Of a DNA stretch of 64,000 nt, positions 14,519 through 61,912 are shown in pieces. The notes beneath the pieces were generated by a model that saw nothing but the letters and a program-made list of their open reading frames with translations, ran no database searches and had not been told where the DNA came from. Both the position numbers and the translations under genes were made by a program. Location of the stretch: IMG/VR virus record IMGVR_UViG_3300045988_170943, positions 356,241 to 420,240 of that record; one strand, 5' to 3'. Positions within the stretch are counted from its first letter, which is position 1; each line of letters starts with the position of its first letter. The stretch is from a virus.

Positions 14519-14733
14519 AAAATCTCAAACCAGCAAACCCTATCACCCTAGGAATAAAGCCAGCACACTGTACACGACAGTAAACATTCCTACAGGACAT
14601 ATCTAAAACCACTTGTCCAGAACCAGCCGGACAACACTCCAACAAGCGCCCCTAAGAACGACAGGCACCAGAAGACCCAGAGTGTCACCCTTCTCATGCC
14701 ACAAACCTAGAGCAACGGGCGCAAGGAAGGCCC

Positions 14734-16518: not shown

Positions 16519-16620
16519 CAGAAACTACCCAAGTATATCCGCGCACACCCCGGAAGTCAAGGGATATTCCACCGCAGACACCTCACCTACCACACCAAGA
16601 CGGAAGAGGCAACACAACCA

Positions 16621-17715: not shown

Positions 17716-18017
17716 GTTATTTGTGGTGGTCTAGAGCTTTGCCTGAGGTAGTGCCTGTCGGCTTGTGGGGCGTGTTCTATAGGCTGGCGGGCGCCTTCCT
17801 TTCGCCTTGAGTGTGTAGGGTGCGTCTTCTGGGGTGTAGGTGCGCGCGGCTGCCATCAAGGGTCGCGGGGTGTCTGTGATTCTGGCCAGGGGTTGGGGTG
17901 TTTGTGTGTCTGGTGGCGGTTTTCCTTCCCCTTTGCTTGTGTTGCTCCTTGTTGACTTTGTGGTGGTTTGATGGTAGTGTGTTGGGCGGTTTAGTGTAGT
18001 GTGCGCCCTGTCTTGGC

Positions 18018-20003
18018 GTGCTGGCTTGGAGGTTTGTGGTGTCTGAGATGTTGCAGGGGCCGTTGTTTGAGCAGGGTCTTGTTGCGATGACTGATGCGGG
18101 TCTGCGTATTGAGGATGAGGAGATCAGTGCGGCGTTTGACCGTAAGTCGTTGAGCCCGTCACTGGTGTCGTCTGTTGTGGATGAGAATGCGTGTATGGCT
18201 CGTATGCTGGCTTCGTCGTTTGTGGTTGATCGACTGGTGACGCCTCCGGTGGATACGGATGCGTCTAGGGGGTCGATGTTTCATAAGGTGATGGAGGAGT
18301 TTTTCTCTCTTCCTCCTGAGGGGCGCACGAATGAGGGTATGAATCAGGCGTTCCGGGAGGTGTTGGCGTCGGATAAGTTCAGGGACCTTGGGGGCATCCC
18401 GGATGCGCGGGACTGGCTTGTGCGGGCTGTTCAGGGCTATTTCAAGATGGGGTCTAAGCCTGATAGGGTGCGGGTGGCTGAACTGGATGTGGGGCATGGT
18501 GCGCGCCCTGGCCTTGAGGTTTTTGTGAAGGGGCAGATTGGTGCAGCGTCTCGCCCTACTTTGGGGTTTGTTGACCGCGTGACTGTGGACCCTAGGGATG
18601 GTAAGTCTTTGGTGGTGGAAGACTATAAGGGGCTGGCTCTGGATACTCCGATCCCTACTCCTTATGGCTGGTCAACAATGGGAAGTCTCAGGGTGGGGGA
18701 TTTTGTGTTGGGGACGACTGGGGCCTGTAGGGTGACGGTGAAGTCGAGTGTGCATTATGGTCGGCCTTGCTTCCGGGTGGGGACTGCTGATGGTGGGGCC
18801 TTGGTGGCGGATAATGTGCACTTGTGGTATGTGGCTCTCGTTCCGCCGGGAGGTTTTGGTGGTGGCGTGGTTGAGTATGCGGTCATCAGCACTGAGCGTA
18901 TGGCTGAGTTTGTGCGTGCAGGATACCTGGTGTTTGTTCCTTCCCCTGACCCGTGGGAGCCTAAGGCTACTGTTGGCGGTGGCACTGTGAACAGTGTTAG
19001 TGGCGGCAGTGTTGACGGTGGGCGCTCTGTGGGGTTCTACTATGGCATGTCGCTGGGGCTCATGGACAGTGGTAACCTTGACCGGTATATTCAGGCTCAC
19101 GGCAGTGCGGGCGGCGAGTTCTCCATGATTGAGGTGGCGGACCGTGCACTGGCTGGCACCATGGATAACATTTTCGTGATCCCAGCCAATATACGGCGGG
19201 ACATCATTGACGGCATTATTCACGTGTCCACCATAGAGGCGCCAGCGGACACTCCAGCAGGGTTGCGTGGTTTCAGGTGGCTGCGGTTCAATGAGTCACC
19301 TGACGGGCCTAAGGCTATTTCCACGATCCTTCTTGATCTCATGTACTTGTCTGGGATGTCCCCCATGCGCGTATTCGACCGCTCCCTAGATGACGGTAGG
19401 GGTGTGACTGAGATTGTGGTACGGGACGACCTGTACGCGCACCCACTAGGCATGGAACCTGGCTGGTGCATGGATGATGGCCTGGACGGTGGCTGGCGTG
19501 AGATCACCGTGGTTGAGGCTGTTGACTCTGTGCCCACCCAGTGCATCCAGGTGGACTCCCCCGACAGCCTCTATCTTGCTGGGCGCACCATGATCACCAC
19601 ACACAACACGGGCAAGGTGAAGAGGTGGAAACCAAACACGAAGGGCGACAAGGGTCTGGCTGAGCAGCGGCAGCAGACCATCTACTCAATGCTTCTGGAA
19701 CAGCACGGATTCGAGGTGTCAGCAGCCAGACTCATCTACCCCGTCTATGGCGAGATCGTGAACGTCAACAAGAATGACGAATGGCTACGCAACCGGGTCG
19801 TGGAAGACATTGAACGGGCCGACGTCCTCATGAAGGCGTGCCGGGACGAGAACCTGTTCGAGTACTCACCATCATTCCTTTGCGCATGGTGCCCGCTAGC
19901 AAAACTGTGCCCCGTCGCAGACATCAAAGGCGGAAAATGCCAGGTAGCCTTCCAGAAGCAGCCAGAGCCAGAACAACTACTTGCGGGGATCAAGATTCGA
20001 TGA
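18018..20003 (+). CDS. Cas4/RecB-family PD-(D/E)xK exonuclease with 4-Cys cluster, interrupted by an in-frame intein
   Basis: N-terminal Cys (ENAC), GFVDRV...EDYK motif, then C-extein TGKVK and CAWCPLAKLCP Fe-S-type cysteines. About 326 aa inserted between DYK and TGK. Start codon (GTG) uncertain. Confidence 0.7.
   Translation: MLAWRFVVSEMLQGPLFEQGLVAMTDAGLRIEDEEISAAFDRKSLSPSLVSSVVDENACMARMLASSFVVDRLVTPPVDTDASRGSMFHKVMEEFFSLPPEGRTNEGMNQAFREVLASDKFRDLGGIPDARDWLVRAVQGYFKMGSKPDRVRVAELDVGHGARPGLEVFVKGQIGAASRPTLGFVDRVTVDPRDGKSLVVEDYKGLALDTPIPTPYGWSTMGSLRVGDFVLGTTGACRVTVKSSVHYGRPCFRVGTADGGALVADNVHLWYVALVPPGGFGGGVVEYAVISTERMAEFVRAGYLVFVPSPDPWEPKATVGGGTVNSVSGGSVDGGRSVGFYYGMSLGLMDSGNLDRYIQAHGSAGGEFSMIEVADRALAGTMDNIFVIPANIRRDIIDGIIHVSTIEAPADTPAGLRGFRWLRFNESPDGPKAISTILLDLMYLSGMSPMRVFDRSLDDGRGVTEIVVRDDLYAHPLGMEPGWCMDDGLDGGWREITVVEAVDSVPTQCIQVDSPDSLYLAGRTMITTHNTGKVKRWKPNTKGDKGLAEQRQQTIYSMLLEQHGFEVSAARLIYPVYGEIVNVNKNDEWLRNRVVEDIERADVLMKACRDENLFEYSPSFLCAWCPLAKLCPVADIKGGKCQVAFQKQPEPEQLLAGIKIR
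18630..19608 (+). other. class-3-type intein in the Cas4-like nuclease
   Basis: Block A GLALDTPI, block B NVHLW (Trp at B:12), block F QCIQVDSPDSLYLAG (Cys at F:4), block G MITTHN with +1 Thr. Confidence 0.6.
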
Positions 20004-43418: not shown

Positions 43419-45830
43419 CTACACGGCGACCTGAGTCAGTTCCAAAGGCTTACCATCCATACCCATAATGCGCTCAACCTTCACCGCATCCCTGAGGAAG
43501 GCCGCCCCCGACTTGAAGAACCCCCTGTCCCGAGGATTAGGTTCACGCTTCGCCCGGTTCTCAAACTCTACAGCCACAGACTCCACACACTCACTGATGA
43601 ACCTGCCCAAAGAGTCAGACACCACCAGGTAGCGGACCTCCCCATACGCGAACCACCCCGACCAGGCATAGTTTCTGAGCACCTTCTTCAACGCGCTACC
43701 CTGTTTACGAGTCAACTCGATCTCATATGCGATAGACCTAGCCCGACCATTCTTGTCCCGCACATCATAACGCATAATAAGGTCTGGCTGATGGTACGAC
43801 GAGTACTTATCCTTCTCATCATCCTTCGCGCACGGTACCCACAGCATCGGATACTTCTCCATGATGCCGTCACGTAACCCACTCGACAAGTCCTGGTATG
43901 CGTCAAGCATCTGCTCACGATACCTCACCAGACGTTCATCTCTCGACAAGGTGACACCAGAGCAGTTGCGCTCCATCCACCGCTCATTCACAAAGAACGC
44001 GGGCATAAACCCATGCAACTTACACTCGCGGGCAACAGTGTACGAAACCATAGCATTATGTGCGCCACGCTCAGTCATACGCGCACCCTTACGGGCACTA
44101 CGCACCTTAATGTTGTCAAAATCCACGCCAGACCTGTTATCCCGGAGCACCTGAAGACCCTTGCTCTTCAACCGGTAAATACTCTTACCACCAAGGAACA
44201 CGGTATCACTGATAATCAGGCCCATCTCCGCCAAACCAAGAAGACGCTTCGGCGCAGACTTCGGAGCCTTCAAACCCAGAATCGTCTGCACACTCCTAGC
44301 AGTAGCGGAACCAGACACAGCAATCAGTTCCAGCACCAACAAATCCTTCTGAGTGATCTTTGACCGATGATACTTCTTTCTCGGATTCCGCTTCTTCCTA
44401 CCTGAGACAGTCTCGCCACGACGCTGCCTGTGCCGCAGATCCGCCTCCTGAGCCTTACTACGCACAGGGAACTTCACATCAGGAGCGAACTCCTGCCGCA
44501 TGTACTCGCCAGTGTCAGAAGGAAGCGGCTGCAACCCCTGACCAGGCTTCTTCGGCGGAGGACGGTACCCCTTCATAAACGGCTTATTCTCAGGATTCAG
44601 GATATGCGGGTCAGTGACACCAACCAGATTCGGGTCAACTGGTTTCTTAGGTCGAGGCCGCTTAGGCTTCTGATACTGAACCACATACTTGCGATCCTCC
44701 AACACGTTCACATCATCAGTACCCAGACCAGCAGGCTCAGGACGCGACTCGCCACCACTGAGAGACAAGCCCCCGCCAGTAGACACACCGCCGGATCGCC
44801 CCCCGTCGTTTACTCCACTACGAGATTGCGCACCATTAGCATCTCCTCGACCACTACTGTCACGACGGAACCCACCCGAACCAAGACCAGCACCCACAGT
44901 GAGACCAGCAGTTACAGCAGGTTCCTGTGGGCTTCCCTGAACGCCACCACGACCATCACCCGCGCCACTGCCCGCAGCGCGCACACGACCCGAACCTTGC
45001 ACCTCACCATCAGGAGAAACGGGCCGCCTATCAGACGTTGAGCGGCCACCCGAGGCTACACTACCAGTGGGACGACGGCCTTCCCCCAACTGCGGGCGAC
45101 CACCGCCCTGAACCCCACCTACTGGCCTCTCATGATGTATAGCAGGCCTCGAAGCGCCTTCGCCCCCACCCGAGGTGCCCACGCCAGCACCATTACCAGC
45201 AGTCCCATGAGGAGCAGTGCGACGCTCAGGGTAAGAGTGACGAGAACTTCCCCCGTCCCCTACAACACCACCCTGAGCCCTCACGGGGCGGGCACCGCCA
45301 GCAGGAGATGCAGGGCGAGAGCCACCTCCCATGCCAGAGGTAACACCCTGCCTGACAACAGGTCCACCACCAGCCATACGACTTCCGCCACCCTGTGACT
45401 GTCGGACACCCATTGGGGCGACACCACCATGCGGTAGATCGCGGCCACGCACACTGTCACCCTTCACCACACCACGGGCGCTGTCGTTACCCCCAGGGTT
45501 GGACCTACCAAGAGACCCCACACCCCTAGGATGACCGCCTCCCCCACGCGACGGCACCACACCAACACCAGCCCCAGTAGGTCGCCCAGCGCCTCTTGCG
45601 TCACCCTGTGGCCGGGTGGGGGAAGCCTCGTCGTCACTGAGCAGGTCACTCATCATGTCATCGAGAAGATCATGCTCCACCTCAGCAGGCACGCCAACAG
45701 TACTACGTGCCGGGCCGCCATTAGTGCCAGAGACAGTCGGGCGCATGGGGCGGCTCACCCGGCTACGGTCACGGAAACTATTACGTGCGCCATCACGGCC
45801 AGGCTCATCAGTCACAAGCACACCCTCCAA
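43419..45830 (-). CDS. replication-relaxation-family-like (wHTH plus PD-(D/E)xK-like) protein with about 400-aa Gly/Arg/Ser-rich disordered N-terminus
   Basis: C-terminal LVLELIAVSGSATARSVQTIL (wHTH) and DLIMRYDV...AYEIELTRK (D...E-x-K). N-terminal low complexity. Confidence 0.4.
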   Translation of the reverse strand: MEGVLVTDEPGRDGARNSFRDRSRVSRPMRPTVSGTNGGPARSTVGVPAEVEHDLLDDMMSDLLSDDEASPTRPQGDARGAGRPTGAGVGVVPSRGGGGHPRGVGSLGRSNPGGNDSARGVVKGDSVRGRDLPHGGVAPMGVRQSQGGGSRMAGGGPVVRQGVTSGMGGGSRPASPAGGARPVRAQGGVVGDGGSSRHSYPERRTAPHGTAGNGAGVGTSGGGEGASRPAIHHERPVGGVQGGGRPQLGEGRRPTGSVASGGRSTSDRRPVSPDGEVQGSGRVRAAGSGAGDGRGGVQGSPQEPAVTAGLTVGAGLGSGGFRRDSSGRGDANGAQSRSGVNDGGRSGGVSTGGGLSLSGGESRPEPAGLGTDDVNVLEDRKYVVQYQKPKRPRPKKPVDPNLVGVTDPHILNPENKPFMKGYRPPPKKPGQGLQPLPSDTGEYMRQEFAPDVKFPVRSKAQEADLRHRQRRGETVSGRKKRNPRKKYHRSKITQKDLLVLELIAVSGSATARSVQTILGLKAPKSAPKRLLGLAEMGLIISDTVFLGGKSIYRLKSKGLQVLRDNRSGVDFDNIKVRSARKGARMTERGAHNAMVSYTVARECKLHGFMPAFFVNERWMERNCSGVTLSRDERLVRYREQMLDAYQDLSSGLRDGIMEKYPMLWVPCAKDDEKDKYSSYHQPDLIMRYDVRDKNGRARSIAYEIELTRKQGSALKKVLRNYAWSGWFAYGEVRYLVVSDSLGRFISECVESVAVEFENRAKREPNPRDRGFFKSGAAFLRDAVKVERIMGMDGKPLELTQVAV

Positions 45831-46046: not shown

Positions 46047-46544
46047 TTGACCAATGACGATCACGCGGCATACGATCAGGCCAGATCCAAACAAGCCAAC
46101 CCCAAGCAAGGAAGTTACGCCATGTGTAGCACAGACAACTACGACCTCATGATCCTCAAGATGTCCCAGTACTTCATGCGTCGAGCACGTGGCAAGTCCT
46201 ACCGGGTGCCAGACGAACTGAGCCTGATTTGCATGAAGGAAGACAACCCTGAAGAATGGGGCGACCTGATCCACGACCTCATCAACGAGGCACACCCATT
46301 CACTGACGAAGACGGAACATGGACCACCACCCACATGGGTAAGGAGGTCACCCACACCATCGGCTCCGACGAGGTTATGGCTGCCGCACGCTACGCACGA
46401 ACCATGCTGGAGATGGCAAACCGGGGAGACTACGCCCTCCTCCACCTCACGTCCGACACCTTGAGCAAGGCGCTGGACGACCTGTACAAGAAAGGCCGCC
46501 AGGACGCCCGCACAGCCCTAGCAGCAGAACAGGGACTCATCTAA
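46047..46544 (+). CDS. hypothetical protein
   Basis: 165-aa ORF of normal composition. Confidence 0.45.
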   Translation: MTNDDHAAYDQARSKQANPKQGSYAMCSTDNYDLMILKMSQYFMRRARGKSYRVPDELSLICMKEDNPEEWGDLIHDLINEAHPFTDEDGTWTTTHMGKEVTHTIGSDEVMAAARYARTMLEMANRGDYALLHLTSDTLSKALDDLYKKGRQDARTALAAEQGLI

Positions 46545-46733
46545 AAGAACCAAACGAAAACACACAGGCCCACATACCAGGTGAAACCACTAACCCCCGG
46601 CATGCGGGCCACAAGTATGTTCAAGAACCAGCAGGAACACAAACACCACACCTCACACCATGGGTGACACGCCAAGGCACTGCGCAACCAAGGCCACCTG
46701 CCCGCACAAAACGATGGGGCGCACAGTTAACGC

Positions 46734-47141
46734 CTAGAGTGGAAAAGACTCAGAAATCCTCATCCAGGTACATGTTTCCAAGTACATGTGACCCACCCCG
46801 TCATTGAAGTGCTTCACCCTGAGCATACGAGACTCACAAGACGGGACGCGGATCAGCACCTCACCATACACTACACCAGCAGGGTCGGGGTTAAACAGGA
46901 GTGTGTCACACAAGATCCCCTCCAGACGATCAGGGAGACTCCCGCTATAGTCCGCAAAGGAGAAGCGGACAGCAACCACCCCGTCGTCAACCTCCACAAT
47001 ACAGAGGTTCGTCCCATTCGGGTTAACCTCATTCACCCGCCCCACAAGCCACTCAGCACGCTTCACAGCCTCACTCTCAGGTAACCCAGACACGTACCCA
47101 TCAACCGACACTGGACGGTCAATCAACTCAACACTTCCCAT
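46734..47141 (-). CDS. hypothetical protein (start set at MGSVELI)
   Basis: C-terminal 135 aa has normal composition. The upstream extension is G/V/W-rich composition artifact. Confidence 0.4.
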   Translation of the reverse strand: MGSVELIDRPVSVDGYVSGLPESEAVKRAEWLVGRVNEVNPNGTNLCIVEVDDGVVAVRFSFADYSGSLPDRLEGILCDTLLFNPDPAGVVYGEVLIRVPSCESRMLRVKHFNDGVGHMYLETCTWMRISESFPL

Positions 47142-48843
47142 AACAGTGTCTCCCTTCCAGACGGAACCCAGTCCGTCCCAGGCAATCTCTTGCTTCGCTG
47201 GCAGTCCACTCGATCTACAGCACACCACCACCCACCAATATACAGGACAATACACCCAGAACACAACCACCCCAGACCATGCCATACCACCCCTGGCAAA
47301 CCCGACCGCCAGTGGCACACAAACAGCCCCAGGAAGACGCCCTCTGAGCAAGGCCACCCCATGCACTCACACCAACCCGAGCACAAACCAGGCGGCAGGA
47401 GCCACGAGAAAAACCAGGCTCACCTACAAGCCCCGCACGCACAACACCAAACATGCCCACCACCCAGAGTGGGAACATGCGCCTAACCCCCTGACGCCAC
47501 CTCCCCGTGTTCCCATGCCCCTGTAAGAGTGAACCAGACAAACGTTACCGCTACTATCATTGTTTACGACTAATCCGCACCCCCAAGAAACAAGCCACGC
47601 CCACACCAATTGAAACACCATGCTCACCCCATAGTTTCACGCTTGCCGCAACCAACCGGAACACCATCAGCACAGAAAAGCGGCAGAGACGAAAACGGAC
47701 GCAAGCCACAACAGCCACCGACCAGGAAAGGGGTCTAAACCCCTGTGCCGCAACACCCCATATACACACCACCCAGCACCATTCCCCCAAACAGAGTAAA
47801 CAGGGGTAAGAACACGACCCAGGATCGCAAGAAGCCGCATCCGGTAACCCAATCACGGTCACGGCCCCACCCTATAGAGATCGACACCGAACCCGCCTCA
47901 TGAGAATCACCCCCCTTGCGGCCACCTCAAAACAAACACAGGCCACGCACACGAACCCCACTCAACACGACAATACACCACCATACGCCATCACAAGAAC
48001 ATCAGGCAATAGTCCCGCACATGAACGCCCACCCCAAAGGCGACACAAATAACCAACCAGCACGCATGACAAGAACACTTGACACCCAGCCAGGAAGACA
48101 TCACATACATCCAAACAAGCCCGCAAACACACAAGACGAAGCAGCACCAAGACACAACACGCAGACATGCGCAAAGACAAGCACACTTTACACACCTACC
48201 ACATACCTGCACACCTCTCAAAAGGCATAGTCACCCAGGCAGCACACCGCCCCGCACAAACAATAGACACACACCCAGAAACAGGCACACAACAAACCCC
48301 AAGACCAACCCCCAAAACACCCATACACCCAGAACGCACAACCAAAAACCACAAAACCGCGCCATTCCAACGAAAAGTCCCAATAACATGTGAAGAAGGG
48401 GTTTCCTATACGGGTACCAAACCCCAAAATTTCCGCCAAGCAAAACCCACCCACTTGGTGTCTCGCGCTGCTGTCGCTGTTGTGGTGCTCGTCTCTGTCG
48501 TGTTTGTTGGTGGGTTTGTGCTTGCCTGCACGGGCGTTCGCTGGGGCTCTCTGTGCAGGGTGGGGGTTGGTCTTGGGGTTGGGTGTGGTGGTGTGCGCTT
48601 ACTGTCGTGATGAAGAGGCAGTGAGCGTGAGTGTGCGCATACTGTTTGGCTGTGTGGTGGATGGGTGTGCGCACATAGTGTCTGGGCGACTACTGCGCAA
48701 CAGGGGGCCAAACAGCCACAGGGGGTAAGGGGTTCAAGACAAAGGAGGAGGACGTAACCGTGCGCGTGGGGGTTGGGGGACTATTAACCCCTGACGGGTG
48801 CATAGGCGTGTGGCGGTACCTGGAGTGGTCACCTGCTACCTAC

Positions 48844-48864
48844 CGGCTGCGTTCACTGCGTTCA
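48844..48864. repeat. left copy (ggctgcgttcactgcgttcac) of a 21-bp perfect inverted repeat
   Basis: Partner is gtgaacgcagtgaacgcagcc at 49108-49128. Each copy is itself a tandem of gtgaacgca. Confidence 0.85.
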
Positions 48865-49006
48865 CTTCGCCTGGTTCCGGCATCGTGTTGGTTTGGGTTG
48901 TGGGTGGAGTCCTGGGTTGGGTTGTGGTTCTTGTGAGCAGTGTGTGGACAGTGTGGTGGCAGGTGTGCGCACATGGTGGCGGCATGGGGTGTGCGTGTGG
49001 GGTGGA

Positions 49007-49556
49007 GTGAAGCGTCAGCGGAGCGGAACCCCCTCCTGGGGTGAGAGAGTGTGCGTGTGCGGCACCCATAGGGGTGGTGGGGGGTTTGGTGAGCAAAGGC
49101 GGGGCAGAGTGAACGCAGTGAACGCAGCCCCCTTCTTGGGGTGCTGGTGGATTCTTTGGGAGGGAGTGTGGGCCCGGACTGGTACCCAAGGCAGAGGGGA
49201 GCCCTGGCGGGGCGGCCCCTTGGTGTGCGGTCAGGGTGTCAACAGGGGGGGCATGCGTGGGTGTGCGCACGGTAGCCTCATGGGGGCGTGTGAGCGTCAG
49301 CGAGCGCGCGGCCTGGGGTCGGGTGGAGCGGGACCGGAGGGTGTAGTGAAGCGTCAGCGGAGCGGAGCCCGTAGTGTTCCGTGGGGGAGGCCCTGGTGTT
49401 GTTATCGGTTGGGGACAGACCTGTTGGCATGTGATCCCTGGGCGGGGTCTCCTGGTGGGCCCGGGGTGTGGGTGCCTTGCCTAGGGGTGCAGGGTGGTGT
49501 GGTAAGGGATGCAGAGTTGAGCATGGGGTGGGTTGAGTGAGCGTCAGCGAACGAAA
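49007..49556 (+). repeat. four dispersed direct copies of GTGA(A)GCGTCAGCG(G)A(G/A)CG at 49007, 49289, 49346, 49537
   Basis: Copies 1 and 3 are an identical 21-mer gtgaagcgtcagcggagcgga. Copies 2 and 4 are gtgagcgtcagcga(g/a)cg. Spacing 60-280 bp. Confidence 0.8.
49108..49128. repeat. right copy (gtgaacgcagtgaacgcagcc) of a 21-bp perfect inverted repeat
   Basis: Exact reverse complement of 48844-48864. Confidence 0.85.
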
Positions 49557-50336
49557 CCCCTAAGGTGAGTGTGGTAGCGTGGGGTGGGTGGAGGCCTGTG
49601 GGGCTGGTAGGTGAGCACGTGGGGTGAAGTGAATGGAGTATTCGGGTAGCGAGGAGAGCCTGGGTGTGTTGGGTGGCTGGGTGTCAGTGGGGTTGGGGGG
49701 CGACCTTCTGTAGGCATGGGTATAGGGTGTGGGTGTCTGGTGGTGTTGTCTGTGGGGGTGAGTGGTTGAGGTTGGGTTGGGTCTTTGGGGTGTTGGTGGT
49801 GTGAGGGTGGCTGGTGTTGGGGGTTGTGTGTGGGGTGGGACTGGTTGGGGGTGTATTTTTTTGTTTGGGGTGTGGGGTGTGGGTTTCACTGGGGCGCTTG
49901 GGGTGGGGTGTTATTTGTGTGTGATGTCCGCCTGGGGTTTGGGTGGGGAGGTTGTTGAAGCGTATTTGGGTGCGGCCTGTTTTGGTGGTGGTGAGGTAGG
50001 TGCCTTGGTTGATGCTGTTGATTCGTTTGCTGGTGAGGGGTTTGGGTGGTTGTGGCAGGCGTGTTTTGGGTGAAGTGGGTCATAGTGGGGTGGTCTGGGG
50101 TTTTGGTGGTGCCAGTATTGGGGGTGGGACGGCAATAGTGGGGTGTGGGGTTCTTGCTGCGTGTGTTGTGTTCTTGCTGGGGCGGGTGGTGTGGTTCTGG
50201 CCGCGAGTGCTGTGGTTGTCTGTGTTCGCATGTCTTGGGGTGTCGTGTGGCATGGTTCACTCGTCTGGGGGTTGTGTTGGTGTGGTGGTCTGGGTTAGGG
50301 TTGGGTCAACAGGCCGGGAGGCAGAGGGCCCCTGGC

Positions 50337-50714
50337 ATGAACCCGAGAAAGGGGATTAGGATGTTTGATCTGCACGCTGCTGAGGCTCAGGTTCGTGAGG
50401 CTGCTGAGGCTGTTCGTACGATTGTTGGTATGCCTGTCACACAGGTGGATGTCCATCAGGTACTTCAGGTGGAGGAGAATGTTGCCACTCAGGTGGTGAT
50501 TACTGGGCGGTACACGAAGGATGTTTTTGTTAGCGGCGCTGTCTTTGGGTACGGGAACCCGGTTCTGGTGGGGCGGCAGGTTGACCGGGTTGAGGAGTCG
50601 TCGGTTTTTGCGGGTGGTGCCTTTTACTGGTCTGTGAAGGCTTTTGATGCTCAGGGGGATCTTGTTTTTGAGATTTCTGGTGAGGGTGTTGACTGGGAGG
50701 TGCGTTCTCGCTGA
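50337..50714 (+). CDS. hypothetical protein with GT-skewed, T-ending codon usage
   Basis: Diverse amino-acid composition despite GT-rich DNA. RBS gggagg/aaagggga before ATG. Confidence 0.45.
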   Translation: MNPRKGIRMFDLHAAEAQVREAAEAVRTIVGMPVTQVDVHQVLQVEENVATQVVITGRYTKDVFVSGAVFGYGNPVLVGRQVDRVEESSVFAGGAFYWSVKAFDAQGDLVFEISGEGVDWEVRSR

Positions 50715-52643
50715 GTCTCTGGGTTTTGGTTGGGGCCTACTGGGGTGTTGGATCCTGGTGGGTCCCAGTCTTTGTTGTCTGTTGGGGTGCTTGCTTGTTG
50801 TGTGGTGTTGGGCTGTCTGGTTAATTTGGGTGGGGTGTGTGTTGCTGTGCTCCTTCGGTCTGGTGCTGTGTTGGGTTATGGTGCGGCCTGGGATCTGGGG
50901 CTGTGCTCGTGGAGGTGTGTGGTGTACTTCATGTTTTTGGTGGTGTTGTGGTAGGTGGCTGGTGGTGTAGTGTTGAGCCGGTGCCGGGCCAGTCGGGCCG
51001 GGCAATGAACCTTGGGAGGGCTCTGTGATGTGTGTGTCTGATGATGTGGCTGTTGGGGTTGCGTCTGGTGTGGTTGGGGGTGTGCCTTCTGGGGGTGTGG
51101 TTTTTGATCCTGCTGACGTTGGTGGGGGTAACACGGCTGTGAGGGGCGCCTATTCTGTTGTTCGTCGTTGGCTGCCCTGGTATGCCAGTGTCAGTGGCCG
51201 GTGGGGTGGTGATTGGTGTGTTCTTCGTTCTGACGTGGGGAAGGATGAGGGGGTGGACAACTCTGCTTCTGTTACTGTTGCCAGCCGGTGGGATGGTCGG
51301 GTGTTTCACTGGGATGTTGTTGCTGTGCACCGTGGTTGTGAGGCTTGTTGTTCTGGGTCGGGTGACTGGCATGCTATGCGGGTTGCTGTCTTTGGCACGG
51401 TGAACAGGGCGGTGGTGGCCTACTTGTCGTCACCCTTGGATTTTGATTGTGATGAGTGTCGGGAGGCTGGCTGGGTGTGACCGGCCAGGGGGTGGTCTCT
51501 TGTGGTGGCGGGGCTGCCTCTAGCCTGCTTGTTGGTTGGGTGTGTTGGGTGCTTCCAGGTTGGGTGGGGTGGTCTTGGTGTGCTGTGTTAGGGTTGTGAG
51601 GTGGGGTTGGTTGGGGTAGATGGTAGGGACGCCATATGGTGGGGTGGTTGGGTGGTTTCATGCTGGTGTGCGGCCTTGGGGTTTGAGTGCCTTGTTGCTT
51701 GCTGTGGGTTTCCCCTGTCCTCTGGGTCTTGTTGGGGTGCGGCCTCTGTGTGTGGGTGGTTTTCCTGGGGCTGGTGGCGGGTTGGGTCTGATGCCTGTTG
51801 GTCGGGCTGGTTGAGTTGCGTGTCTGTGTCGTGGGGTGGTTTCCTATGGCGTTGGCTGTCTGGCTTTGCCTGCCCGGTTGGAGGTCTCCTTGTGGGGCGT
51901 CTCCTTGGAGTGGTGGCGGGTTGTTCCTTGTTGGCCTCAGGTGGTGTGTGTGAAGGTGGGTGTCACTCAGGTTGTGTGAAGGCGCGAAGATGTGCCACCC
52001 AGGGTGCGGGTATTGGGGTCCGCACCCTGGGTGGTTTTGTTTGCCTGTGCTTTTCTTCTTTGGCCTGTCCGTCTGGTGCGTGCTGGGGCTTCCTGGGCTT
52101 GCTGGGTGCCTGAGTGTGGGACCCTTGTCTGGGCTCGTGGTGGATAGTGGGGACACCAGGATAGGGGTTGGGTGGCGATTTCGTGGAGGGTGTGGTAGCC
52201 CGTGTCTTGTTTCTGGTGCATGTTAATGATGTCGTTCACTTGGGCCGCAAGAACTTGGTGTCGTCTTCTTGTGGTCTTGGCTGTTGTGGGTGGGGGTGAG
52301 GGCTTCGCTGTCTTCTTTGTTGCGTGGGGTGTCCTCGGAGAGGGGGCTGGTGATCTGGACTAGGGGTGGGTGCGGCCTCGATGGCGTGGGTGGTAGTTGG
52401 CGGCCGGGTCGGAGAGGGTGGCGCAGCCTGAGATTCTGTGGCGGGTCAGGTTCTCGTTCTGGTTTGTTGGGTGGGGTACTGTTGCTCTGGGTTCAGGAGG
52501 TCGCGCATGTCCTGGTTGGTGGATTGGATGCGGTAGGCGGCGCCTGGGTGGTGGCCATGGTTGCTCACCCCTCTTTTGTGGGTCTGGGTGATGTGGGGCT
52601 TGTTTGTCTTGTGGCCTGGCGGCGGTGTTGGGGTCTGGTGGGG

Positions 52644-53000
52644 TTAGAACAGGGTGACGGATAGGGTGTCATAGCCTTCGCCCATGATCGTGAGAGGGCG
52701 GTCACGGATGTCGTCTCCGCGGATCCAGATCTCCCACAGGGTGTCCGTGCCTGCCTCGGACTCGTACCAGCAGCAGTTGGGTTCGCCAATGGTGAGCCCT
52801 TCCAGGTTGGTGGTGGTCTTGAAGACTACACCCTCGATCAGCAAGCGGCGTCCTGGGGTGGTGTCGATGACGATGTTGTTCCACCCGTCAGGGCGTGTCT
52901 CCCATGTGGCGGTCTCGATGGTCTGGCCCTTGACCTCTTTGAGGATCTGGGTGGCGGCCAGTACCTTGTCGTGGCCTTGGTGGCTGTTGGTGCTGAGCAT
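52644..53000 (-). CDS. hypothetical protein
   Basis: 118-aa ORF of normal composition embedded in the skewed block. Confidence 0.45.
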   Translation of the reverse strand: MLSTNSHQGHDKVLAATQILKEVKGQTIETATWETRPDGWNNIVIDTTPGRRLLIEGVVFKTTTNLEGLTIGEPNCCWYESEAGTDTLWEIWIRGDDIRDRPLTIMGEGYDTLSVTLF

Positions 53001-54291
53001 GGCTGCCTCCCTACAGGTTGACGGGTCTGGTTCTGTCTTGTAGTGGCTCGCGCCCTGTCGGCGGAGCCCTTATCTGTGGTTACAGCATAGGCGTGTGCTG
53101 GGTGTGTCCGCAACCCTTGGGCGTGTGAACTGGGGCACAGTCAGTGCGGGTGTGCTTGTGGTCTGTTGGGGCTTCTTGGGGTTTGTTCTGTTCTGCTGGG
53201 GTGGATCCATGGGTGTGGGTGCTCGGTTGGGAGTGCTTGGGCACTGGGGTGGGTGCGTGGTTGGTTCGGCCCGACTTTCTGTCTTGTGGTCGTTGGTCGC
53301 CTGCCTGAACTGCTGCCCGTGGAGGGGTGTGCTGCTGGTGCGGTGGTCTGGGGTTGCGTGTACGGGATGCGGAGGGGTGGGGTGCCTGTTGTGTGCGAAA
53401 CCTGGGTGAGGCTGGGACTTTTCGTTGTTATTCCAGTGGTAAAGTCCGTGCAGGCAAGGTCGTGTACTCTCGTTCGTTCCTGTTGTCGGGGTCGCCTTGT
53501 CTGCTCCTCCCTGAATCTGTCCCGCTGAGTGTCTGGTGGTGTCCCTTGTTTGGGGCTTGTTTTGTTGTGGTAGTAGGGGAAGGTGGCTGTGGGTGGGCTG
53601 GTCGTCCAGGTGGATGGGCCCGTGCAGGCAAGGGGGTTTTGAACGTACACCATATGAAAAAGAGATCTTGTATTACCAGGGAACGCTGCACGGGGTACCC
53701 GCCATTGTCACCTGACAGTTCCTCATCGTTTGTGTCCGCTGACTTGTGGGGGCGGGGCGTGTTGCTGGTTGAGGGTGTGATCGGGTTGGTGGTCTGTTTG
53801 GGTGTGGCTGCGACTGGTGGAGGGGTGACGCTGGGTGGGTTGCCTCAGCCTGCTGCTGGGGGTGGGGGTGGCGGAGAACCCTCTGGAAGAGCGTGTAAGC
53901 CACGCTGAGGCGTTTTTGGGGATGTACTGGTACCCTGGATAGGGTGCGGTGGCTCTAGGCCGTTAGGGGCGCTGTGACGACTCCTTGGGTGCTTGTCGCT
54001 CACATGTCCTGCCTTGCCCTTTACTTTCCGGCTGGGCTGGAGGTACGTATGGGGGTGTGGGGCTTAGGTTGTCCAGTGAATGGGTGGGGAGGGGTGGTAG
54101 AGGTAGGGCCGTGCTTGCTTTGGCCGGGTGTTTGTTTATGTGGGTGTTCTTCTGGGTGGGCATATTGTGTTAGGGGTGAATGGATTCTGTCACCCTGTCC
54201 ACGGTTTGTCCTCGTTTCAGGGTTGACGGCCGGGGAGTGAGGGTGTTAAGGTTGTGAGAATTCCTGATTTGGATGAGAGTGAGAGCAAGGT

Positions 54292-55080
54292 ATGAGTGAG
54301 CGACTTGGTGGGGAGCCATCGGATCTGTTGGGGGAGTCTGGTGTGCCTGTTTCAGTGCCCCGTCCTGAATCGGCAGCCATAGTGGATGCTGTGCCTGCTG
54401 GTGGTTCCGCTGTTGCGGGTTCTTTTGTGTCTCGTGTGGCTCCGCTTCGGGAGGATGGGGAGGTTCTGCCTCTGCCGACGGTTGAGGGTGGTTTCAGGAC
54501 GGTGCTGGCTGATCCGCCGTGGCGTTTCCGGAACCGTACTGGGAAGGTGGCCCCTGAGCACCGTCGTCTGGACAGGTACTCCACCATGACGTTGGAGGAC
54601 ATCAAGGGTATCCCTGTGGATGGTGTGACTGCTGAAAATGCGCACTGCTATCTGTGGGTGCCGAACGCTCTGCTTCCTGAGGGGCTGGAGGTTTTGCGGG
54701 CCTGGGGGTTCCGGTACGTGTCGAACCTGGTGTGGGCGAAGCGGCGTAAGGATGGTGGTCCGGATGGTCGTGGGGTGGGGTTCTACTTCAGGAACGTCAC
54801 TGAACTGATTCTTTTCGGGGTCAAGGGGTCTATGAGGACGCTATCTCCGGCCCGTAGTCAGGTGAACATGATCGAGACCCGAAAGAGGGAGCACTCGCGT
54901 AAGCCGGATGAGCAGTACCCGTTGATTGAGGCGTGTTCTCCGGGACCCTATCTGGAGATGTTTGCCCGCTATGGTCGCCCTGGCTGGGTGGCGTGGGGGG
55001 ATGAGTCCGCGGATGATGTCACCCCCAGGGGTGGTGTGCACAGGGGGTACGCGGGTGGGGAGATCGTTCCCAGAGTGTGA
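54292..55080 (+). CDS. MT-A70-family N6-adenine DNA methyltransferase
   Basis: LADPPWRF (DPPW catalytic motif), CYLWVP, WGFRY, FRNVTELILFGVKG. About 80-aa Gly/Ser/Val-rich N-terminal extension. Confidence 0.75.
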   Translation: MSERLGGEPSDLLGESGVPVSVPRPESAAIVDAVPAGGSAVAGSFVSRVAPLREDGEVLPLPTVEGGFRTVLADPPWRFRNRTGKVAPEHRRLDRYSTMTLEDIKGIPVDGVTAENAHCYLWVPNALLPEGLEVLRAWGFRYVSNLVWAKRRKDGGPDGRGVGFYFRNVTELILFGVKGSMRTLSPARSQVNMIETRKREHSRKPDEQYPLIEACSPGPYLEMFARYGRPGWVAWGDESADDVTPRGGVHRGYAGGEIVPRV

Positions 55081-55415
55081 GACAGGACTGTAGGTGGTGG
55101 GGCTGGTTGCCTGGGGTGGCGTGCCCTCTGAGTGCGGGATGCGGCTGCCAGGGGTGCAGGGTGGTGTGGGGTCGGGTGCTTGCTGGGTGTGGTGGGTCTC
55201 AGGGTAGGTTGGGTCCAGTGTGGGCTGCGCCCGGTGTGCTTGGTGCCAGCATGTTGGCGTGGGTGGCATTGTTGGGACTTGTTGCGAGGGTGGCGGCTAG
55301 TGCTGCATGTGGCCCAGTTCACTCACACTGGGGTTGCGTGGTGCTGGTGGCTGGGGTACGCTTGAGTCATCAGCCGGAGGGAAGAGCCTGACGGCGTGAC
55401 CTTAGAGGAGTCAAA

Positions 55416-55943
55416 ATGACTGAGTGCGGAGACGTTAAGGGTTTCACCTGCCCTGGCGATGAGCGCAATGCCCGCGTATTCGTGGAGGTAATTGAGGGTC
55501 TACTGAAGGGGGCAGTGATTGACTCTATCAAGACCTGCTTCCGTAAGAACATGACTGTCCTCACGGAGAACCTTACTGAGGATGACGAGACGGATGACGT
55601 CATTGTCATCGAGGGTCGGAAGTATGGTGAGCCTTTTACGCTGAGTATTGTTGGGGTGTCATTCCCTATCCATGACACCACTACATGTTTCAAGATTGTG
55701 GAGGCGTCTAACTCACTGGGGGAGGTCAAGGGCGTATCCATCATGGATCCGTCGCACGAGTTCTACAACGACTGGGAGTTTTCTCTTTTTTACACTATTT
55801 TGATTAGTCGTGGGTGCGAGGGGGACGTTAAGATCCTGGTCGATGTAAGTGGTGACGGACAGTTGTCTCTCCCCTTCATGGTGTACAATAAGACTCACAT
55901 GTCGTTCTTCAACGGGGAGGTCAGTACCTGGGAGATCGAGTAG
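55416..55943 (+). CDS. hypothetical protein
   Basis: 175-aa acidic ORF of normal composition. Confidence 0.5.
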   Translation: MTECGDVKGFTCPGDERNARVFVEVIEGLLKGAVIDSIKTCFRKNMTVLTENLTEDDETDDVIVIEGRKYGEPFTLSIVGVSFPIHDTTTCFKIVEASNSLGEVKGVSIMDPSHEFYNDWEFSLFYTILISRGCEGDVKILVDVSGDGQLSLPFMVYNKTHMSFFNGEVSTWEIE

Positions 55944-59141: not shown

Positions 59142-59238
59142 CGACTATAGGTTCATCTGTTATGGTATATTCAATGTGAAGGTCTATCTACCTGATATTG
59201 GTGTACACCACAGGTAAGCATTACAGGAGGGGTTTGTT

Positions 59239-59862
59239 GTGGGTTGGGTTCGGGTGAAGAAGGCTGCTGAGATTCTTCGGATGTCTCCAGAGACGGTTCG
59301 TCAGTGGTCTAATACTGGGAAGATTGAGTGTCAGAGGTCGGCTGCGGGTCAGCGTGTCTTTGATGAGGACTACCTGAGGTCTCTGGTTGATCCTGATTCG
59401 GAGGTGTCCTCGCCGCAGTGCGTTTTCTATGTTCGTTCATCCAGTGGTCAGGACACTCCTATGGAGACTCAGAGGAAGGCTCTGGAGGCGGCATATGGTA
59501 AGCCGGTGAAGGTTTTCAGTGACAAGGCGTCAGGGCTGAACGAGCGGCGTAGAGGTCTTACTTCCCTGCTGAACTGGGTGAATGAGCATCATGGTACGAC
59601 TGTCTGTGTGACGGCTAAGGATCGTCTGACACGGTTTGGTTTCACGTATCTGGAGATGCTTATTCAGGACCGTGGTGGTAAGGTGGTTGTTCTGGATGAT
59701 GAGGCATTCAAGGAGCCTCATGAGGCTTTGATGGGTGACTTTATGGCTCTGCTTGCGTCTTTCTCTGGTCGTTTCTACCGTATTCGAGGGTGGGATCAGC
59801 AGCGTCGTCTGCTTGCTGACGCTGGTGACGTCATCAATGAAAGATCAAGTAAGAGTGCCTAG
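59239..59862 (+). CDS. tnpA: IS607-type TnpA: MerR-like HTH fused to serine-recombinase catalytic domain
   Basis: N-terminal HTH (AAEILRMSPETVRQW), catalytic Ser region VFYVRSSSGQD and R...DRLTRFG. GTG start with RBS aggagg. Confidence 0.75.
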   Translation: MGWVRVKKAAEILRMSPETVRQWSNTGKIECQRSAAGQRVFDEDYLRSLVDPDSEVSSPQCVFYVRSSSGQDTPMETQRKALEAAYGKPVKVFSDKASGLNERRRGLTSLLNWVNEHHGTTVCVTAKDRLTRFGFTYLEMLIQDRGGKVVVLDDEAFKEPHEALMGDFMALLASFSGRFYRIRGWDQQRRLLADAGDVINERSSKSA

Positions 59863-61411
59863 TGTGAACCGCACCTATCCTTGTTGTCCGTATGCTTGTT
59901 TTGGCGAGGATGGTAAAGGTGTTGATCTGCATGACGTCTTGGAGGAGGTTCGCTGTGAGGCGACGGAGTGTGCCAGGCAGGCGGTTAAGCACCTGACTTG
60001 GAAGAACATGATCAGGGTTGCCGACTACAAGGGCCTGAAGCCCTCTGTGGCTGGCAGCAGGATGGGCATTCGGCTGCCTCCTGGAAGGCGTCAAAGAGGG
60101 CGGAGTCGTTTTGAGCGCATGGTGCGTGAGTATGCTGTGTCTCAACTGCGTTCCTGGAGCGAGCGTTTTCTGGCCTACAGGGGTGGCTCCAGCAAGTATG
60201 TCAGTGCTGGTTGGAGGCGTACCGCTAATACGCACTCACCAGAGACTCTGGCACCTCGTTTAGCGCTCTCGGCCACTGATTGCCAGTATCACTCTGTCAG
60301 CGTCAACGGGAGTACCACTGTTCTTCGTATGGTGATCGGTGGTCGTTGGGTGAGCCTCTACTTCAAGACGCCCAGACGTTTTCTGGAGGCTGGTGTTCGT
60401 CCTGTCGCTCCTGACATCATTGTTGATGATCGTGGGCGGGTCGTGTTCAACTGGTTCACTGAGATTCCTGTTGAACGGAGTGATTTTTCTGATCGTTATG
60501 TTGTTGGGGTGGATGTCGGTCGTAACAGCGCGGCATTCTCTGCTGTCGTTGATGTTACTACAGGTTATCCGGTTGAGGTGTCAGGTGGTAATCGGCGTAT
60601 CAAGACTCTTGAGAACAGGATCTCACGTACAGAGAACCAGATCAGAAGTCTTCACAAGACGGGCCGCCACGATGAGGCGGCCCAGCACAGAAGAGGGTTG
60701 GCGAATCGACGTAACGAACTGGCGATCCTGGTAGGGCAGGAGGTCGCCGACCTGTCTTTCAGGTACGACAACGCCCTTGTCGCCGTGGAGGATCTTTCAG
60801 GTATTCGTAACACGATGAGTCATGGTCGCTGGGTGAGGGGTCAGATGGTTCGGCGTGCTACGCACATGGTTGAGGCCGATGGCGGCCGAGTCATGAAGGT
60901 CAACCCGGCGTACACTTCTCAGAAATGCCACGTGTGCAACACTCAGATGGACATGAGAGACAGAAAAAGACCAAGGTGTATGGTGTGCAAGGTTACTTGG
61001 GACAGGGACGAGAACGCCGCCATCAACATCGCCAAAAGACCCCCGCATGGTAAAGCCTGTGCCACGAGAAAAAGGCATGCAAGTTCTGGACGTCGAAGAA
61101 ACTCAAAGGGATCCGCTGCGCCGCTGAAGCACCCATTGTCCAAGGGCAGGCCAACTTCTAAGGCACCACAGAACAGGCCACAAGACAGTCACATGTTGGA
61201 GCACTCCAAGCGTTTTCGACGCGAGAAGCGAGAAGGAGGTGCAGCAACTAGATCAACGTGCGCGGTAGGCTGGTCGCCGGTCGTCAAGACCGACGTGAGC
61301 GTTCCTACCGTGGGGTCCTCCTGTGAAGACGTACAGACAACAAGCCGCACGACTACACCTTGCTCTGCAACCAGCAGAGAAACCACATCCTGTGGAAATG
61401 CCAAAGTGTAG
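59837..61411 (+). CDS. tnpB: TnpB (IS607-associated OrfB, RuvC-like plus Zn finger)
   Basis: VVGVDVG, VEDLS, KCHVCNTQMD...CMVCKVTWDRDENAAINIA. About 55% similar to the TnpB at 7468-9009. Confidence 0.8.
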   Translation: MKDQVRVPSVNRTYPCCPYACFGEDGKGVDLHDVLEEVRCEATECARQAVKHLTWKNMIRVADYKGLKPSVAGSRMGIRLPPGRRQRGRSRFERMVREYAVSQLRSWSERFLAYRGGSSKYVSAGWRRTANTHSPETLAPRLALSATDCQYHSVSVNGSTTVLRMVIGGRWVSLYFKTPRRFLEAGVRPVAPDIIVDDRGRVVFNWFTEIPVERSDFSDRYVVGVDVGRNSAAFSAVVDVTTGYPVEVSGGNRRIKTLENRISRTENQIRSLHKTGRHDEAAQHRRGLANRRNELAILVGQEVADLSFRYDNALVAVEDLSGIRNTMSHGRWVRGQMVRRATHMVEADGGRVMKVNPAYTSQKCHVCNTQMDMRDRKRPRCMVCKVTWDRDENAAINIAKRPPHGKACATRKRHASSGRRRNSKGSAAPLKHPLSKGRPTSKAPQNRPQDSHMLEHSKRFRREKREGGAATRSTCAVGWSPVVKTDVSVPTVGSSCEDVQTTSRTTTPCSATSRETTSCGNAKV

Positions 61412-61912
61412 TCATACGCTGAGTGATGGGTAATGAAGGAACGACTTTCAGACCGCTGGCCCTCTCTGTGGAGGTAGCCGGTCAGTGCCCAAGGATACTA
61501 TGTGGGGACACCAAGAACACAACACTCCCCGCACGGCCCGGTAACAGCACCACCGGGGAGGAGATCCTAAATGCCCCGAGTGGTCGCCTGTGCGAGGAGG
61601 CATCGGGTTACAGGGGGCTTGAGGATCTGTGCGCTCAGGCCGACACGATGCGCCCAATTGTCGATGGGCCATGGGGTGACATGGAGAGGTCACGGGCCTG
61701 GCTTATCGAGAACCTGGGCCTGTACGCGCTGCGCCCGGACGCTAAGCGTATCCCTGAGGACCTGAAGGCGAAGATGTCGGTCAGAATCAACATCCAGGGT
61801 GTGTGACCCACATCACCCGTCCTGGGCTTGCAGGTAGGTATCGGCCTACTGCATACTTGAGCCAGCGAGCCGGAGGCAGAAGGTCAACGGCACTACCCCA
61901 GGAGGATGCAGC

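Follow-up and report, generated by a model that had tools for sequence, protein, structure and literature searches.

Strand skew is routinely used to locate replication origins and to infer mutational processes; bacterial and phage genomes generally show it as a weak bias along their whole length. At the replication origins of bacteria, plasmids, and phages, the GC and AT skews switch, with the leading strand carrying more G than C and more T than A. The heavy/light asymmetry of vertebrate mitochondrial DNA has been attributed to strand-displacement replication and single-strand deamination, and GC-skewed regions prone to R-loop formation include mammalian CpG-island promoters, immunoglobulin switch regions, and the R-loop origins of ColE1 and T4. 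Iteron-type origins (such as P1 oriR, lambda ori, and R6K) have an adjacent initiator gene, and the first-step-transfer boundary of T5 is a non-coding, repeat-rich region. This study analyzed a 64,000-nt stretch of DNA, hereafter the window (positions 356,241 to 420,240 of the IMG/VR record IMGVR_UViG_3300045988_170943), from a huge phage or phage-like extrachromosomal element of approximately 400 kb found in the human mouth; the viral status of the element is that of the IMG/VR classification. The element carries a largely non-coding block of approximately 7 kb in which the two strands differ extremely in composition and exchange roles at an abrupt flip. Strand asymmetry around initiation sites is already known as a phenomenon; to our knowledge, such magnitude, a local mirror-image form, and flips within genes have not been described for phages.

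The mirror-image strand bias reported in the original prediction was confirmed as strong. The + strand contained 34.9% A, 38.6% C, 16.4% G, and 10.1% T in 47150-48420 (A+C 73.5%), and 42.1% G and 29.5% T in 48421-54250 (G+T 71.7%); the description of the two sides as almost purely A/C or G/T was therefore overstated. The most skewed sub-blocks, 49600-50360 and 50715-51024, reached 80.8% and 78.7% G+T, respectively, compared with a mean of 0.50 (sd 0.11) for G+T in 300-nt windows across the whole window. GC skew ranged from -0.45 to +0.74 and AT skew from +0.69 to -0.70. Among 78 unrelated phage loci used as a control (L011-L088, approximately 1 Mb), no 500-nt window exhibited a G+T fraction above 0.68 or below 0.32. 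The predicted flip was present and abrupt, at 48,454/48,455 (with AAAACCCACCCAC to the left of the junction and TTGGTGTCTCG to its right) rather than at approximately 48.42 kb. The 7-kb block was skewed as predicted; the full skewed domain is wider, extending over roughly 43-55.4 kb, and a second flip lies at approximately 16.95 kb. On both sides, the G+T-rich strand points away from a control region at the flip, at approximately 75-80% G+T, and a cumulative GC skew, comparable to the GT/AC skew suggested as a check with the original prediction, had its minimum at the flip within the window. CpG rho was 0.52 in the non-coding part of 49560-54290 and 0.72 in 47150-48455, compared with 0.84 in a reference region used as control, and the rare bases A and C were clumped in skewed non-coding DNA (AA 1.6, CC 1.46).

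The bias resembles the skew switches of replication origins in that the G+T-rich strand runs outward from the switch, which is also where the cumulative skew is lowest, and synonymous sites are biased in genes of either strand. Origin skews, however, are step-like, extend over a whole replichore, and have absolute GC skews of approximately 0.05-0.2, whereas the skew in the window reaches 0.74 and decays within 5-10 kb; moreover, unlike at such origins, a second flip of the same polarity is present 31 kb away. Vertebrate mitochondrial DNA is comparable in magnitude, with one strand exceeding 80% G+T at neutral sites, and it shares the A>G and C>T changes of the exposed strand and a positional gradient. 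Its asymmetry is genome-wide and confined to one strand, whereas here two mirror arms of a few kilobases surround an internal site of a 400-kb double-stranded element.

The flip lies within a conserved control region of approximately 1.2 kb (48.34-49.56 kb) that comprises a core, palindromic GCGCAYAC sites, a 21-nt element, and iteron-like GAGCGTCAGCGAGCG repeats. We compared five variants of the same phage clade (clade A), which differ by 1-6%. The core (48340-48600), which contains the composition switch and a hairpin at 48398-48425 (GGGGTTT...AAACCCC), was near-invariant, with 2 variable columns and no gaps in variants that elsewhere differ by 3-6%, whereas both flanks varied. Motif A (GTGTGCGCAYAY; core palindrome TGTGCGCACA) occurs on the + strand at 48591, 48631, and 48665 (48591-48679), with further copies at 48963 and 49260; the window held 4 matches, against 0.11 expected. 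The 21-nt element ACTATTAACCCCTGACGGGTG (48780-48800, + strand) is identical in both phage clades. Exact copies were found in 8 IMG/VR contigs of 116-398 kb and in 33 metagenome contigs as long as 547 kb; a search of 185,579 species-representative genomes gave none. Motif B, with the consensus GAGCGTCAGCGAGCG, consists of two heptamers 10 bp apart (one helical turn) and occurs as direct copies on the + strand at 49007-49027, 49290-49306, 49346-49366, and 49537-49553. With up to 3 mismatches, 4 matches were found in 48456-50360 against 0.03 expected, and variants were present at 48847 (- strand) and 49108 (+ strand); motif B thus reaches the at least three copies of a 15-22-bp repeat within approximately 1 kb by which iteron origins are recognized. 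A conserved TTCCGGCATCGTGTT (48875-48889) is kept between the clades. The clade A spacer has a GC content of 51-58% and is A+C-rich rather than AT-rich. A reading of 48.65-49.7 kb as a tandem repeat was rejected; only short shared motifs were found, and no unit structure.

Two inverted iteron variants (AGTGAACGC, at 48845-48871 and 49103-49129) form a 27-nt inverted repeat with 93% complementarity that brackets a hypervariable 231-bp segment (48872-49102). This segment was inverted only in L002 (4595-4831), 1 of approximately 20 assemblies, and had diverged more than any other part of the control region (79-96% identity; its right flank has 96-97%). In an invertible promoter switch (inverton), both orientations would be expected to recur in populations; no invertase gene adjoins the segment. 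The contigs of three independent assemblies (L007, L090, and L008) stop at approximately 49,103, approximately 49,735, and 49,979, respectively, all within the repeat array or the stretch of highest G+T. Inversion or hypervariability may have broken the assemblies here, or DNA of such composition may sequence poorly.

The DNA-binding protein gene closest to the control region, 2.5 kb to its left, encodes 803 aa (43419-45830, - strand). The N-terminal half of the protein is of low complexity and rich in Gly, Arg, Ser, and Val; the C-terminal half has a match to the MarR-type winged-helix fold and an alpha/beta domain, for which a fold search gave no convincing match. This protein may bind the repeats. 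In clade A, two small genes separate its gene from the control region, whereas in a second phage clade (clade B) the two directly adjoin.

Clade B, with approximately 47% identity in the neighboring protein, has the same control region with the motif order kept; the core is conserved within clade A, and the repeats and the 21-nt element are conserved across the two clades. The 21-nt element is the sole long exact block common to the window and the clade B locus L092, and the clade A core does not align with clade B. At the equivalent place, clade B carries 4-5 direct copies of AGCGCAYACA. Motif B is present 5 times in each clade B locus, with 2 copies inverted and 3 direct, and their order with respect to the 21-nt element is that of clade A. 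An AT-rich stretch of approximately 850 bp (GC 36-45%) adjoins the clade B repeats, and a comparable G+T-rich stretch of approximately 0.5-1 kb occurs at the same place past the iterons. The gene content of the right arm differs between the clades. The control region is newly recognized and clade-conserved in an uncultured huge phage. It resembles iteron-type origins in its several 15-20-bp repeats in direct and inverted orientation, the half-sites 10 bp apart, the AT-rich stretch of clade B, the nearby winged-helix gene, and the conservation of this architecture across clades. It differs from them in that the MarR-like protein falls outside the known Rep families, a cluster of DnaA boxes is lacking, the clade A flanks are not AT-rich, and two repeat types are combined with a unique 21-nt element. 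It also resembles the boundary in T5, a large lytic phage, which is likewise non-coding on the kilobase scale, carries direct and inverted repeats, and lies near genes of the early or anti-restriction type; we know of no strand-composition anomaly of this kind in T5.

Approximately 85% of the block is non-coding, as judged from frameshifting indels and the lack of codon periodicity. Among the five variants, indels were mostly not multiples of 3 in 47287-50137, 50799-51003, 51487-52631, and 53867-54051, and none occurred in 50138-50798, 51004-51486, 52632-53866, and 54052-55092. Codon-phase base composition was strongly periodic in four genes (p = 1e-10 to 1e-12) and not in any intervening stretch (p = 0.08-0.92); by periodicity and indel pattern, only 50361-50714, 51025-51480, 52644-53000, and 54292-55080 are protein-coding. 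Both tests are independent of the genetic code, which argues against hidden genes in an alternative code. The remaining long open reading frames (ORFs) are rich in Pro, Thr, His, and Gln or in Gly, Val, Trp, and Cys, as expected from a stop-poor composition, and the view that they are composition artifacts was borne out. That the region might instead encode conserved proteins was not supported by the intergenic stretches. Artifact ORFs without periodicity, such as "170-aa" and "168-aa" genes, were called in every assembly examined. The embedded genes had been described as using GT-rich codons; this applies to 50361-50714 and 51025-51480, in which the sense-strand G+T fraction at third codon positions (GT3) is 0.85 and 0.84, respectively, but not to 52644-53000 on the - strand, the codons of which are C-ending (C 0.58 and T 0.05 at position 3).

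We polarized the substitutions with one outgroup, L010, picked by distance, so that the counts rest on just 110 and 65 changes. In both arms, A>G on the G+T-rich strand was 2.6-2.7 times as frequent as T>C and C>T 1.4-1.5 times as frequent as G>A. The per-site rate toward G or T was approximately twice the rate away from them in both arms, and the predicted equilibrium G+T was 0.66-0.68, compared with 0.73-0.75 observed. The unpolarized singleton spectrum had symmetric counts, as expected at equilibrium, and was uninformative. A>G and C>T on one strand are the changes that single-stranded DNA is known to accumulate, as in studies of the mitochondrial heavy strand and of transcription asymmetry. 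The strand-specific process of C>T plus A>G changes put forward in the original prediction fits these results, and synonymous sites are biased alike. The G+T of non-coding DNA (0.76-0.81) lies close to the GT3 of the genes beside it (0.84-0.85), as a neutral mutational equilibrium would predict. In both arms, the genes running counter to the G+T-rich strand (46047-46544 on the + strand and 52644-53000 on the - strand) carry the third-position bias of their arm, and lineage-specific segments also follow the bias of the arm in which they lie, including segments of 240 nt and 185 nt in the left arm, both A+C-rich. Homologues of the MT-A70 gene at the right end of the block lie in unskewed DNA in other phages; the bias was therefore acquired locally. 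The bias belongs to the DNA strand and the position rather than to the gene.

This dependence on position is clearest at the second flip, which belongs to a smaller skew domain of the same polarity (14400-19300) and lies at approximately 16,950, inside an FtsK-like gene (16621-17715, + strand). GT3 rises from 0.14 to 0.98 along this gene and drops from 0.96 to 0.32 along the next (18018-20003, + strand), so that a G+T-rich pulse at 17.0-19.3 kb begins 380 nt inside one gene and fades inside the other. The gene to the left of the flip (14734-16518, - strand), which encodes an HNH/DUF7487 homing endonuclease, has a sense GT3 of 0.87. A search for relatives without this gene, intended as a natural experiment on the flip, brought up close relatives only. 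The start of the FtsK-like ORF resembles the C-terminal fragment of a split intein (MRVTSIKK...GHSIVSHN/S), and the motor domain resumes where the GK of Walker A would end; no N-terminal half was found in the window. The arrangement resembles that of "fractured genes" (PMC2677866), but the endonuclease is here on the opposite strand.

As an explanation of the observed composition and polarity, non-coding status, conservation of core and repeats, asymmetric substitution rates, and position-dependent synonymous bias, we tentatively favor a bidirectional initiation zone whose displaced strands bear a single-strand mutational footprint. Opening of the duplex at the core would leave the strand pointing 5'-to-3' away from the core single-stranded, either as the lagging-strand template or as the non-template strand of an R-loop or transcription bubble. 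Single-strand damage would then build up, converting adenine to hypoxanthine (A>G) and cytosine to uracil (C>T), and unconstrained sequence would drift to 75-81% G+T and synonymous sites to 85-98%. The outcome would be stop-poor artifact ORFs, frequent slippage indels, and few surviving genes. Single-strandedness would thus be the cause of the skew, and replication, beyond transcription alone, would start at the control region. The zone is most likely a replication origin with flanks that are also transcribed outward, although from the sequence alone an origin and divergent R-loop-prone promoters cannot be told apart. An origin is favored because of the repeat architecture, the AT-rich neighbor in clade B, the cumulative-skew minimum, and a long-range shift of GT3 between different gene classes (mean 0.41 in + strand genes 8-22 kb to the left of the flip and 0.52 in those 14-25 kb to its right; Mann-Whitney p = 0.0017), and also because the skew boundaries ignore those of genes and terminators. 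Divergent transcription is favored because the genes with G/T-rich third positions point outward, terminators are co-oriented, the nearby protein has a repressor-like fold, and the second flip is free of repeats. An origin, divergent transcription, or both at the flip, in line with the original prediction, remains the best reading and is strengthened by the repeat-bearing control region.

Several observations weigh against an initiation zone of this type. The second flip lacks repeats and intergenic DNA and shares no sequence with the main flip, so the process that makes the skew does not need the repeat array, and two origins 31 kb apart would need to be assumed. DnaA boxes (TTRTCCACA, one mismatch) numbered 23 in the window against 32.6 expected, with one inside the array and no cluster; DnaA boxes are not obligatory in phage origins. 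The winged-helix protein matches repressors (MarR) and no known initiator or Rep family, and a tblastn search with it against deposited phages and plasmids gave no match. In clade B, the skew is weak and right-sided only, with an unskewed left arm; a control region accompanied by such weak skew implies that the extreme state is a lineage-specific amplification. The C-rich third positions of the two counter-strand genes also resemble the ordinary codon usage of the element, and the single outgroup with its few changes and the mixture of gene classes in the long-range GT3 shift limit those two lines of evidence. Finally, the genes with a sense GT3 of at least 0.70 (13379, 14734, 43419, and 46734 on the - strand; 50361, 51025, and 54292 on the + strand) all point away from a flip. 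Since every one of them runs in the direction of the G+T-rich strand, transcription by itself could account for much of the bias.

The main rival, transcription as the whole explanation, we consider somewhat unlikely. In that case, the winged-helix protein would act through the palindromic sites on a pair of strong, divergently oriented promoters in the core, which would have no role in replication, and the G+T-rich strands would be the non-template strands of long leaders, skewed by transcription-associated mutation or by R-loops. MarR-type proteins typically repress divergent promoters, in keeping with the fold match of the neighboring protein; strong + strand terminators are present at 50728-50770, behind the 117-aa gene at 50361, and at 51994-52035, and a - strand terminator follows the 135-aa gene at 46734-47141; and both flips, with the outward orientation of their G/T3-rich genes, would be explained without two origins. 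The locus shares with R-loop-prone regions a G-rich non-template strand downstream of the presumed starts, a mirror skew at a bidirectional site, kilobase-long G-rich non-coding tracts, and a bias that fades with distance. Unlike in those regions, canonical G-quadruplex motifs do not exceed the number predicted from composition, T is as strongly enriched as G, and the skew boundaries do not coincide with the ends of genes or terminators, as at the pulse that starts 380 nt inside the FtsK-like gene. The G-quadruplex enrichment considered in the original prediction was absent: four-tract matches (G3+N1-7) numbered 5 in the right arm against 6.8 +/- 2.5 expected and 0 in the left against 0.7. Furthermore, the skew does not fall past the two strong terminators of the right arm, a sigma-70 promoter scan gave 1 site against 1.7 expected and none in the core, and distant genes on the same strand still differ between the two sides of the flip.

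Selection rather than mutation, acting on the arms as G/U-rich, C-poor RNA or as structure-free single-stranded DNA, appears quite improbable. Such arms might serve as Rho-resistant leaders, a sponge for proteins or RNA, an R-loop primer, or palindrome-free DNA that escapes restriction. The G+T-rich strand is indeed nearly unable to pair with itself: the predicted folding energy of 49560-50360 was -39.9 kcal/mol, against -125.9 kcal/mol for a control of equal length. The non-coding 52951-54290 is more conserved than the neighboring MT-A70 gene, with 2-7 variable columns per 200 nt in 53001-54291, the 9-mer GTGCGGCCT recurs five times in the right arm, and an orphan methyltransferase stands at the end of the block. 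Most of the arms, however, are hypervariable in sequence and length. An Rfam search of 46500-55000 on both strands found no match at a permissive threshold (E <= 1), and the conserved non-coding islands did not fold better than shuffled sequences (z +0.24 for 53001-54291). The same bias is found at synonymous sites of unrelated genes and in the all-coding second locus, and the left arm of clade B is unskewed.

Local editing by an enzyme, namely a phage or host single-strand DNA deaminase or an error-prone polymerase that acts on displaced strands and leaves kataegis-like tracts, is still more improbable. It would suit the unusual magnitude (GT3 up to 0.98), the sharp localization to two domains in approximately 95 kb, the dominance of transitions, and the stronger CpG depletion of G+T-rich non-coding DNA (rho 0.52 versus 0.84). 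Nevertheless, no deaminase gene was found among the window proteins scanned, no strong sequence-context signature exists beyond CpG, and a composition near equilibrium with rate ratios of 1.5-2.7 does not indicate a burst.

Barely credible is a hypermutated ancient inverted duplication, protein-coding DNA concealed by, for instance, an alternative code, or an artifact of assembly or sequencing, since the mirror-image composition, the long ORFs on both strands, and the three assemblies that break at 49.1-50.0 kb are set against arms that lack collinear similarity beyond one 27-nt match (score 22 for the left-arm reverse complement against the right arm, versus 14.7 +/- 1.4 in shuffled sequences, 1 of 200 of which scored as high; a 9-nt insertion interrupts the match in relatives), non-triplet indels without periodicity, the lack of a suppressor tRNA in the window, and the recovery of the block at 89-100% identity in more than 20 independent oral-metagenome assemblies from different assemblers, which therefore exclude a chimera. 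These loci were fetched through the 21-nt marker. The absence of the block from relatives, named in the original prediction as a sign of chimerism, was thus not observed in close relatives; clade B has the weaker, one-sided skew.

The polarity of the skew matches an origin or a divergent promoter and is opposite to that of double-strand-break resection. Resection at a double-strand break or homing-endonuclease site and a telomere junction were both rejected by reasoning, since both predict the opposite polarity. A conjugative leading region was set aside; its transferred template strand would be A+C-rich, which contradicts single-strand deamination.

The genes of the block and its flanks are few. 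On the left, a 165-aa gene (46047-46544, + strand; ratio of nonsynonymous to synonymous polymorphism, pN/pS, 0.29; C 0.49 and A 0.19 at position 3) is followed by the 135-aa gene (46734-47141, - strand; sense GT3 0.71), which is the first gene of the leftward arm. The metagenome gene calls give the latter as 135 aa, and a 2-nt indel at 47287 excludes a longer, 210-aa ORF (46734-47366); the gene thus ends at 47141. The left-arm spacer (47142-48454; G+T 0.27; periodicity p = 0.51) has an A+C-rich + strand and is poorly conserved. On the right, the most G+T-rich non-coding stretch (49560-50360, + strand, approximately 81%) lies just past the iteron array and is hypervariable through indels. It is followed on the + strand by the 117-aa gene (50361-50714; periodicity p = 2.5e-12; no indels; pN/pS 0.84 from 18 changes) and a 151-aa Cys-rich gene (51025-51480; p = 2.7e-10; pN/pS 0.18). 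A G+T-rich non-coding stretch (51481-52643, + strand), which contains the second terminator and 3 of the 5 GTGCGGCCT motifs, separates these from the 118-aa gene (52644-53000, - strand; p = 7.8e-12; no indels); the pN/pS values of the 117-aa and 118-aa genes rest on too few changes to judge selection. The highly conserved G+T-rich stretch 53001-54291 (+ strand; periodicity p = 0.78 and 0.92) contains islands of ordinary composition at approximately 53410-53530 and 53600-53720. The strongly skewed domain ends at the gene for an MT-A70 family DNA methyltransferase with a DPPW motif (54292-55080, + strand; Pfam PF05063, E = 4.7e-28; GT3 0.77; pN/pS 0.14). Scans of the embedded and flanking small proteins against Pfam, PHROG, and NCBIfam gave no match except MT-A70.

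The 9-mer GTGCGGCCT occurs on the + strand of the right arm at 49970, 50881, 51668, 51737, and 52370; the window holds 8 copies against 0.7 expected, with no extended flanking consensus. The 117-aa and 151-aa genes share an upstream leader, read by eye, at 50300-50360 and 50975-51024, which consists of a C-containing hairpin followed by (C)ATGAACC and a G-rich ribosome-binding site; both copies are islands of ordinary composition. A repeated intergenic element of approximately 100 nt lies at 55304-55418, directly upstream of the gene at 55416-55943. Copies occur upstream of other genes in L002 (17388 and 18013), L010 (18685), and the clade B locus L092 (905-997 and 4659-4747), and its RNA folding was no better than that of shuffled sequences (z = -1.1).

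The assignment to a huge phage or phage-like element of approximately 400 kb is based on the MT-A70 protein, which is encoded residue for residue on 24 human oral metagenome contigs, the longest of 418,686 bp, and also on IMG/VR viral contigs of 201-394 kb. A megablast search of deposited phages and plasmids with the block gave no match. The window encodes four tRNAs, a transfer-messenger RNA (tmRNA), DNA polymerase III alpha, a clamp loader, NrdD, GyrA, and RadA, together with a Tad-pilus-like gene set, two T2SSE-type ATPases, and three TnpB genes. In positions 1-43000 of the window, the tmRNA tag is ANSDNFALAA, the Tad-pilus-like operon comprises two T2SSF genes, T2SSE, CpaB, and a ParA/TadZ-like gene, and a VirB4-like AAA_10 ATPase and a 953-aa T2SSE ATPase are encoded on this viral-classed contig. 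With this unusual gene content, the element may be a phage, a phage-plasmid, or a giant extrachromosomal element of another kind. The sampled DNA amounts to approximately 95 kb out of approximately 400 kb. Extreme skew domains were rare, with two in this sample, and a distant 21-kb region reached by TnpB-based sampling (4 loci) contained none. An IS607-like unit (59142-61634), composed of a serine recombinase (59239-59862; GT3 0.82) and TnpB (59864-61411; GT3 0.60), is missing from four relatives (L002, L005, L009, and L010), and in the variant L105 (1985-4279) an IS607-like copy breaks the HNH endonuclease gene.

For annotation, the block is a warning, because gene callers gave artifact ORFs in it in every assembly examined; the 21-nt element and the iteron consensus serve as practical markers by which this phage group can be recognized in oral metagenomes. 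More generally, if the favored reading is right, mutation pressure by itself would suffice to convert several kilobases of a phage genome into DNA that lacks genes and mimics ORFs. We regard as improbable a more far-reaching possibility, namely that the two domains are sites of long-lasting, kilobase-scale single-stranded DNA formed through strand-displacement of the mitochondrial type or persistent R-loop or D-loop initiation, where local hypermutation, possibly assisted by an enzyme, erodes genes and speeds the turnover of accessory and anti-defense genes near the control region. If true, this would constitute a built-in, position-specific mutator zone in a virus. If prolonged single-strandedness does underlie the skew, the skew would provide a sequence-level readout of where and how giant phage genomes start replication or early transcription.

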